A model generated the notes under the pieces. That model was not told the origin of the DNA and made no database searches. It saw only the letters and a list, made by a program, of their open reading frames with translations. A DNA stretch of 218 nt from a phage. Shown here piece by piece: positions 1 through 218 of the stretch. The DNA lies in the sequence record M25604.1; one strand, written 5' to 3'. The first letter of the stretch is position 1. Every line of letters starts with the position of its first letter. The translations under genes and the position numbers were made by a program.

Positions 1-11
1 GGGGACCCCCC
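1..11. repeat. 5' arm of terminal inverted repeat (ggggacccccc)
   Basis: Pairs with 207-218: g1-4 with c215-218, a5 with t214, c6-11 with g207-212, with t213 as a single bulge. Gives an 11-bp helix joining the two window ends. Confidence 0.6.
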
Positions 12-21
12 GGAAGGGGGG
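6..21. other. Stem-loop H0: 6-bp G/C stem (6-11 with 16-21), loop ggaa (GNRA-type on + strand)
   Basis: cccccc-ggaa-gggggg is perfectly complementary. Competes with the terminal helix for the C-run at 6-11. Confidence 0.5.
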
Positions 22-41
22 ACGAGGTGCGGGCACCTCGT
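22..41. other. Stem-loop H1: 8-bp stem (22-29 with 34-41), loop cggg
   Basis: acgaggtg is the exact reverse complement of cacctcgt; no mismatches. Confidence 0.6.
23..29 (+). repeat. Direct repeat copy 1 of cgaggtg
   Basis: Identical 7-mer at 191-197; both are complementary to cacctcg at 34-40. Confidence 0.6.
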
Positions 42-53
42 ACGGGAGTTCGA

Positions 54-69
54 CCGTGACGAGTCACGG
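54..69. other. Stem-loop H2: 6-bp stem (54-59 with 64-69), loop cgag; 16-bp palindrome
   Basis: ccgtga pairs with tcacgg; the whole ccgtgac-ga-gtcacgg is a palindrome with a 2-nt centre. Confidence 0.55.
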
Positions 70-72
70 GCT

Positions 73-86
73 AGCGCTTTCGCGCT
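73..86. other. Stem-loop H3: 5-bp stem (73-77 with 82-86), loop tttc
   Basis: agcgc pairs with gcgct. Not followed by a T-run, so not an intrinsic terminator. Confidence 0.5.
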
Positions 87-90
87 CTCC

Positions 91-97
91 AGGTGAC
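91..97 (+). repeat. Direct repeat copy 1 of aggtgac
   Basis: Identical 7-mer at 193-199; the shorter gtgac also occurs at 56-60. Confidence 0.5.
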
Positions 98-119
98 GCC
101 TCGTGAAGAGGCGCGACCT
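91..119. other. Stem-loop H4: two-part stem, outer 91-94 with 116-119 and inner 97-102 with 108-113, separated by a 2x2 internal loop; apical loop gtgaa
   Basis: aggt pairs with acct and cgcctc with gaggcg; internal loop is ga (95-96) opposite cg (114-115). The only hairpin here with an internal loop. Confidence 0.55.
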
Positions 120-142
120 TCGTGCGTTTCGGCGACGCACGA
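120..142. other. Stem-loop H5: 8-bp stem (120-127 with 135-142), 7-nt loop ttcggcg
   Basis: tcgtgcgt is the exact reverse complement of acgcacga. Directly abuts H4, so coaxial stacking is possible. Confidence 0.6.
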
Positions 143-147
143 GAACC

Positions 148-170
148 GCCACGCTGCTTCGCAGCGTGGC
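148..170. other. Stem-loop H6: 10-bp stem (148-157 with 161-170), loop ttc; 23-bp perfect palindrome
   Basis: gccacgctgc is the exact reverse complement of gcagcgtggc. Longest perfect stem in the window. Confidence 0.65.
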
Positions 171-171
171 C

Positions 172-195
172 CTTCGCGCAGCCCGCTGCGCGAGG
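172..195. other. Stem-loop H7: 7-bp core stem (175-181 with 186-192), loop cccg, extendable to 172-195
   Basis: cgcgcag pairs with ctgcgcg. Extension adds t174-a193, t173-g194 (wobble, RNA only) and c172-g195. Confidence 0.55.
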
Positions 196-199
196 TGAC
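191..199 (+). repeat. Direct repeat copy 2 of cgaggtg, overlapping aggtgac copy 2
   Basis: cgaggtg at 191-197 matches 23-29; aggtgac at 193-199 matches 91-97. Confidence 0.6.
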
Positions 200-212
200 C
201 CCCGAAGGGGGG
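199..212. other. Stem-loop H8: 5-bp G/C stem (199-203 with 208-212), loop gaag
   Basis: ccccc-gaag-ggggg. Competes with the terminal helix for the G-run at 207-212. Confidence 0.5.
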
Positions 213-218
213 TTCCCC
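207..218. repeat. 3' arm of terminal inverted repeat (ggggggttcccc)
   Basis: Reverse complement is ggggaacccccc versus 5' ggggacccccc, i.e. a single-base indel difference. Confidence 0.6.

Follow-up and report, generated by a model that had tools for sequence, protein, structure and literature searches.

A 218-nt phage sequence with paired ends is very probably the complete midivariant RNA MDV-1, a parasite of Qβ replicase

The window, by which we mean the whole stretch of 218 nucleotides that was analysed (phage sequence record M25604.1), is predicted to fold into a body of seven perfect hairpins with small loops, closed by a helix between its two ends, with 72% of the bases paired (Table 1). 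Both strands fold far better than their shuffles (z-scores of −6.7 and −7.8). Unpaired runs in the plus strand are all of 5 nt or less and contain at most 4 G/C, and the minus strand shows one 7-nt loop with 5 G/C. The stretch 76–89 (CTTTCGCGCTCTCC) is rich in pyrimidines, 11 of its 14 positions by simple count. The only open reading frame of at least 20 amino acids (103–198, plus strand; 31 amino acids, GTG start, arginine-rich) is taken as a chance product of the GC-rich sequence, and ARAGORN finds no tRNA or tmRNA in the window. None of the 4227 Rfam families searched at E≤10 reaches its gathering score, and the search returned no msr and no ribozyme match. The sub-threshold matches, among them those to sbcD RNA (137–218, minus strand; 20.2 bits against a gathering score of 40) and to PhotoRC-I (198–214, minus strand; 18.6 against 45), are generic GC-rich hairpins with UUCG/GAAG-type loops and carry no family membership.

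Table 1. Features of the 218-nt window, with the basis of each assignment
Feature	Coordinates	Strand	Basis
5′ G cluster; complement is the minus-strand 3′ CCCC, the site of initiation	1–4	+	sequence
Terminal helix, 5′ arm; same sequence as Qβ(+) nt 2–12	1–11	+	fold, repeats, shuffles, Qβ comparison
5′ hairpin CCCCCC-GGAA-GGGGGG, about −14 kcal/mol; predicted to form first on the growing chain and to compete with the terminal helix	6–21	+	fold; direct repeat D1 with 199–212
Continuation of the terminal rod, paired to 199–203 (p 0.88)	16–20	+	fold
Hairpin, 8-bp perfect stem, loop CGGG	22–41	+	fold; inverted repeat I5
Hairpin, 6-bp stem, loop CGAG; carries the insertion site 61/62	54–69	+	fold; primers
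Hairpin, 5-bp stem, loop UUUC; part of pyrimidine-rich 76–89	73–86	+	sequence, fold
Qβ(−)-like segment, enclosing an interrupted hairpin at 91–119	79–125	+	alignment
Hairpin, 9-bp stem, loop UCGGC	120–142	+	fold; inverted repeat I9
Hairpin, 10-bp stem, UUC/UUCG loop	148–170	+	fold; inverted repeat I1
Hairpin, 10-bp stem, loop CCCG	172–195	+	fold; inverted repeat I7
3′ initiation module, including the 3′ hairpin 199–211 and the terminal CCCC 215–218	184–218	+	BLAST, Qβ(−) alignment
3′ arm of the terminal helix (207–217 paired in the MFE structure, C218 free)	207–218	+	fold, repeats, shuffles

The first 11 nucleotides of the window (GGGGACCCCCC) and positions 207–218 (GGGGGGTTCCCC, whose reverse complement is GGGGAACCCCCC) are complementary but for one extra T, and an earlier note made from the sequence alone had read them as an 11-bp helix with one bulged T. 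The pairing itself stands and lies far beyond chance: the 12 nucleotides at one end form with the 12 at the other a duplex of −26.5 kcal/mol, compared with −6.87±3.08 kcal/mol for dinucleotide shuffles (0 of 5,000 as good), and when the GGGG and CCCC ends are held fixed and only the interior is shuffled, 1 of 5,000 is as good as the real ends. The bulge, however, belongs to a minor alternative. The register preferred by ViennaRNA consists of 11 contiguous pairs between 1–11 and 207–217 (G1–C217 to G3–C215, a G4–U214 wobble, A5–U213, and C6–G212 to C11–G207) and has pair probabilities of 0.84–0.96, whereas the register with a bulged U, also of 11 bp (G1–C218 to G4–C215, A5–U, and C6–G212 to C11–G207), reaches 0.15. 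The arms 1–11 and 207–217 are also listed by a repeat search as an inverted repeat (I3) with 91% complementarity. Past a 4 × 3 internal loop the helix is predicted to continue as 16–20:199–203, which results in a 16-bp terminal rod (11 + 5 bp), and the MFE structure of the plus strand that this terminal helix closes has an energy of −140.1 kcal/mol. The description of the window as a self-contained module, in which paired ends enclose a series of hairpins, is correct as a structural reading, and its boundaries are indeed those of an element, the source being only 218 nt long and the whole molecule.

The first lead to the identity of this molecule comes from a BLAST search against phage genomes, in which the only meaningful match aligns window 185–218 (minus strand) with bases 1–34, the 5′ end, of Escherichia phage Qβ. 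Taken together with this match, the length of 218 nt, the GGGG start, the CCCC end and the all-hairpin make-up pointed to MDV-1, the 218-nt ‘Spiegelman monster', which is a non-coding RNA and a parasite of Qβ replicase. Published primers that anneal to MDV-1-encoding plasmids (PMC4652763), together with further primers for mdv plasmids (PMC5362092), match the window without a mismatch in 10 of 10 cases; they tile positions 32–82 free of gaps, and their orientations are those expected, flanking the known insertion site. The letter-by-letter match to the published MDV-1 sequence covers these 51 of the 218 nt, and the identity of the other 167 nt rests on homologies to Qβ and on length. When fragments of the window were used in a full-text search, those of primer length matched only the same two MDV papers; the 10-mer GGGCTAGCGC also matched 47 unrelated papers by chance, 24 fragments gave no match in that search, and the supplements of PMC7378860 are without the MDV-1 sequence. 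In length the window is the same as the RNA that Mills, Kramer and Spiegelman sequenced in 1973, for which PMC8781251 and PMC8743537, citing that work, give 218 nt.

The insertion site allows a choice between versions of MDV-1. Foreign sequences are by standard inserted in the loop of hairpin 54–69, between 61 and 62 of the window. In the current laboratory MDV-1, which is 222 nt long, the site is at 63–64 (literature numbering); the window is about 4 nt shorter, with 2 nt fewer upstream of 61 and 2 nt fewer downstream. A site at 61/62 instead of 63–64 therefore indicates that the window is the older 218-nt sequence and not the later revision. Resequencing subsequently revised the length to 221 nt. 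We conclude that window 1–218 (plus strand) is very probably the complete MDV-1 (+) RNA in its original 218-nt ‘midivariant' version.

It is very improbable that the window is instead an engineered or computationally designed RNA, be it a synthetic MDV-1 derivative or an unrelated hairpin scaffold with a GC clamp. Design would account for stems that are all perfect and for short loops that are often of stable types (GGAA, UUCG-like), for fold z-scores of −6.7 and −7.8, for the 4 nt by which the window falls below the 222-nt laboratory version and for its absence from all natural sequence collections searched. However, exact identity to MDV-1 primers over 51 nt and three separate Qβ-homologous segments would not be expected had the RNA been designed de novo, the published length of 218 nt is matched exactly, and the same look is produced by selection for fast replication that avoids forming double-stranded RNA (dsRNA). 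What had appeared to be a GC clamp is the initiation signal of Qβ replicase, a G-start and a C-end, and the sequence is that of the RNA sequenced in 1973.

The Qβ-like part of the window amounts to about 93 of its 218 nt only (1–11, 79–125 and 184–218). Window 184–218 agrees at 31 of 34 positions with the final 34 nt, at the 3′ end, of the Qβ minus strand, and window 1–11 is identical to nt 2–12 of the plus strand. The internal segment 79–125 aligns with nt 81–128 of the Qβ minus strand with 38 of 48 positions identical (Smith–Waterman score of 44; the 200 shuffles score 22.1±2.4, reach 31 at most and are never as good). This segment is nearly as far from the 5′ end as its counterpart in the Qβ minus strand, and the alignment needs a single 1-nt gap, at 88/89 (CTCT-CCAGG), one point at which an additional C of a later, longer MDV-1 version would fit. 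A direct repeat is found at 91–100 (AGGTGACGCC) and 193–202 (AGGTGACCCC), so placed that AGGUGAC opens both the internal Qβ-like segment and the 3′ initiation module; it could be due to chance or to a shared replicase contact. For positions 12–78 and 126–183 (about 125 nt), nothing similar could be detected in Qβ, E. coli, plasmids or the contig collections searched. MDV-1 was reportedly isolated from a reaction without added template. A popular account presents it as a shrunken Qβ genome (PMC8781251), which is unlike what plain alignment shows, since only the 93 nt mentioned above are Qβ-like.

Comparison of the 3′ ends accounts for the complementarity of the termini. The last 25 or so nucleotides of MDV-1(+) (...GACCCCCGAAGGGGGGTTCCCC), MDV-1(−) (...GTCCCCCCTTCCGGGGGGTCCCC) and Qβ(−) (...GACCCCCTAAGGGGGGTCCCCC) follow the same pattern, a C-run, a loop of 3–4 nt, a G-run and U(U)CCCC-3′, from which the 3′ end of the Qβ plus strand (...CTCTCTCCTCCCA) differs. 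A 3′ initiation module of the Qβ-minus type is thus common to both strands of MDV-1; each 5′ end has to be the complement of that module, and the ends of the window are therefore complementary. The ends of the Qβ genome pair only weakly (−9.6 and −8.0 kcal/mol), since the 3′ end of its plus strand is a different sequence.

The four options offered in the earlier note (a retron RNA, a small circular or satellite-like RNA, a MITE/REP-like element and a designed RNA) did not name MDV-1; three of them fail and the satellite-like RNA comes nearest. Two exact 22-mers of the window have no match in the viral contigs of IMG/VR, in 185,579 species genomes (GTDB, 596 Gb) or in 241 million JGI metagenome records. 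BLAST found no match in 5,426 complete E. coli genomes, and in 72,556 plasmids it returned only short matches, with a query coverage of no more than 26% and E-values of 0.6–8. A viroid-like or satellite circular RNA copied by rolling circle, whose paired ends would be the junction of a permuted monomer, is extremely improbable. In its favour are the size of about 220 nt, the extensive structure, the lack of coding capacity and the pairing ends of the window, but Rfam (E≤10) gave no match to a ribozyme, be it hammerhead, hairpin, HDV, twister or another, the G- and C-cluster termini and the homology to the Qβ(−) 3′ end mark a linear template copied end to end, and the sequence is in no metagenome or viral contig searched. 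The term satellite-like does fit MDV-1 as a parasite of Qβ replicase; the molecule is nonetheless linear and without a ribozyme motif, and its ‘circularity' is only functional, via the terminal helix. The probability of a retron msr/msd RNA, in which a1/a2 repeats pair the transcript ends and which likewise has a terminal inverted repeat around hairpins, is negligible, given that Rfam yields no msr match at E≤10, that the sequence is absent from the bacterial genomes, plasmids and E. coli genomes searched, so that no reverse transcriptase gene can lie next to it, that the source itself has no flanks, and that there is a positive identification of the window as MDV-1. A MITE or REP-like DNA element, to which an 11-nt terminal inverted repeat and GC-rich palindromic units would be suited, has just as vanishing a chance, with 0 copies in the 22-mer scans of 596 Gb of genomes and of metagenomes, none by BLAST in E. 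coli and short matches only in plasmids.

To be efficient, a template of Qβ replicase has to end in a 3′ CCC, form a stem at its 5′ terminus, contain an internal C/U-rich domain and allow a long-range 5′–3′ interaction (PMC4652763), the 3′ CCC or oligo-C requirement being also described elsewhere (PMC6913131). The GGGG start and CCCC end of the window, and hence of its complement, provide a 5′ G cluster and a 3′ CCC on both strands. A 5′-terminal stem is predicted on both strands as well (6–21 in the plus strand, and its minus-strand equivalent when the 3′ end of that strand is kept free), and the predicted helix 1–11:207–217 supplies the long-range 5′–3′ interaction. The pyrimidine-rich stretch 76–89 is a candidate for the internal C/U-rich domain. 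This interaction, termed ‘functional circularity', is listed in the literature as required for efficient Qβ templates. The predicted terminal helix would accordingly represent a functional feature already known for templates of this class, to which the same literature would assign a role in initiation. The experiments on functional circularity reportedly concern other RQ RNAs and not MDV-1. Both the identity of MDV-1 and its paired ends are already known; terminal pairing is a known requirement of such templates and defines no new element type.

Qβ replicase, made of the phage β subunit and the host proteins EF-Tu, EF-Ts and S1, starts without a primer at the 3′-terminal C cluster and copies the template from end to end. 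Because the complement would be an equally good template, both strands would be amplified exponentially. Since the start module is itself a hairpin, the termini could fold in two ways, either as local hairpins, which would form first during synthesis, or as the 11 + 5 bp rod predicted at equilibrium, which would correspond to the long-range 5′–3′ interaction. The seven perfect small-loop hairpins would prevent template and product from joining as inert dsRNA. Experiments have established that formation of dsRNA is suppressed by stems and promoted by GC-containing loops (PMC4652763), and S1 further promotes the release of single strands (PMC5762825). The predicted fold of MDV-1, with its small loops and high degree of pairing, agrees with this stem/loop rule, and its hairpins may, on the strength of that literature, serve in the avoidance of dsRNA.

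Each arm of the terminal helix can also form a hairpin, C6–C11 with G16–G21 and C199–C203 with G207–G211, and the resulting twin-hairpin conformer is predicted at −135.1 kcal/mol, 5 kcal/mol above the rod at −140.1 kcal/mol. Segments 8–21 and 199–212 are direct repeats of each other (CCCCGGAAGGGGGG and CCCCCGAAGGGGGG, 93%). The terminal hairpin modules are mutually repeated because each is palindromic, and this is what would permit the switch between twin hairpins and an end-to-end rod. In folds of the growing chain, hairpin 6–21 is present by nt 21 and is kept in the MFE structure through 211 nt; it is displaced at 214 nt, where 4–11 pairs with 207–214, and the full 1–11:207–217 helix appears only at 218 nt. 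The barrier to the rod is estimated at about 15.6 kcal/mol from closed twin hairpins and about 4.3 kcal/mol from open ones, and holding the 3′ CCCC (215–218) single-stranded costs about 8.7 kcal/mol. For initiation the 3′ C's have to be single-stranded on entry into the enzyme, so that the terminal helix cannot be the state that is actually copied. Classical drawings of MDV-1 show local terminal hairpins. It is conceivable, although we rather doubt it, that the 16-bp rod at predicted equilibrium, and not these classical terminal hairpins, is the state recognised by Qβ replicase, and that the hairpin/rod bistability would act as a switch between fresh and initiation-licensed strands. If this were true, the window would still be MDV-1, and the novelty would be confined to how much the terminal helix counts in the mechanism of this template.

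MDV-1 was the first replicating RNA to be sequenced and is still the standard vector in Qβ-replicase amplification and artificial-cell work. Its recovery here is mainly of value as a calibration, in which a closed module with paired ends is explained by a textbook molecule, and brings nothing new for biology. MDV-1 is a clear illustration of ends that become complementary through the need for an identical polymerase start site on both strands.

Compared with MDV-1 as sequenced by Mills, Kramer and Spiegelman in 1973, the window shows the same length, the same insertion-site loop and the same G-cluster 5′ and C-cluster 3′ ends; it is identical over the 51 nt comparable to published primers, and it has the Qβ(−)-like 3′ end and internal segment. 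The 222-nt laboratory version of MDV-1 differs from it by being some 4 nt longer. The 3′ end of the Qβ minus strand, which is the counterpart of the 5′ leader hairpin of the plus strand of Qβ (Qubevirus durum), contains the same C5-loop-G6-U-CCCC hairpin module. In MDV-1 this minus-type module is found on both strands, whereas the 3′ end of the Qβ plus strand is different. The RQ or ‘6S' RNAs (such as RQ135 and RQ200) can be likened to MDV-1 by description, being likewise non-coding, parasitic on the replicase and exponentially amplified, with a need for a 3′ CCC, a 5′ stem and a 5′–3′ interaction, but their sequences are different. Panhandle termini also occur in defective-interfering RNAs of the copy-back kind and in segmented negative-strand RNA viruses. 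Their complementarity likewise stems from a polymerase start site that is shared by the 3′ ends of the two strands; the polymerases and sequences of these RNAs are unrelated to those of MDV-1, and the analogy would be one of logic only.
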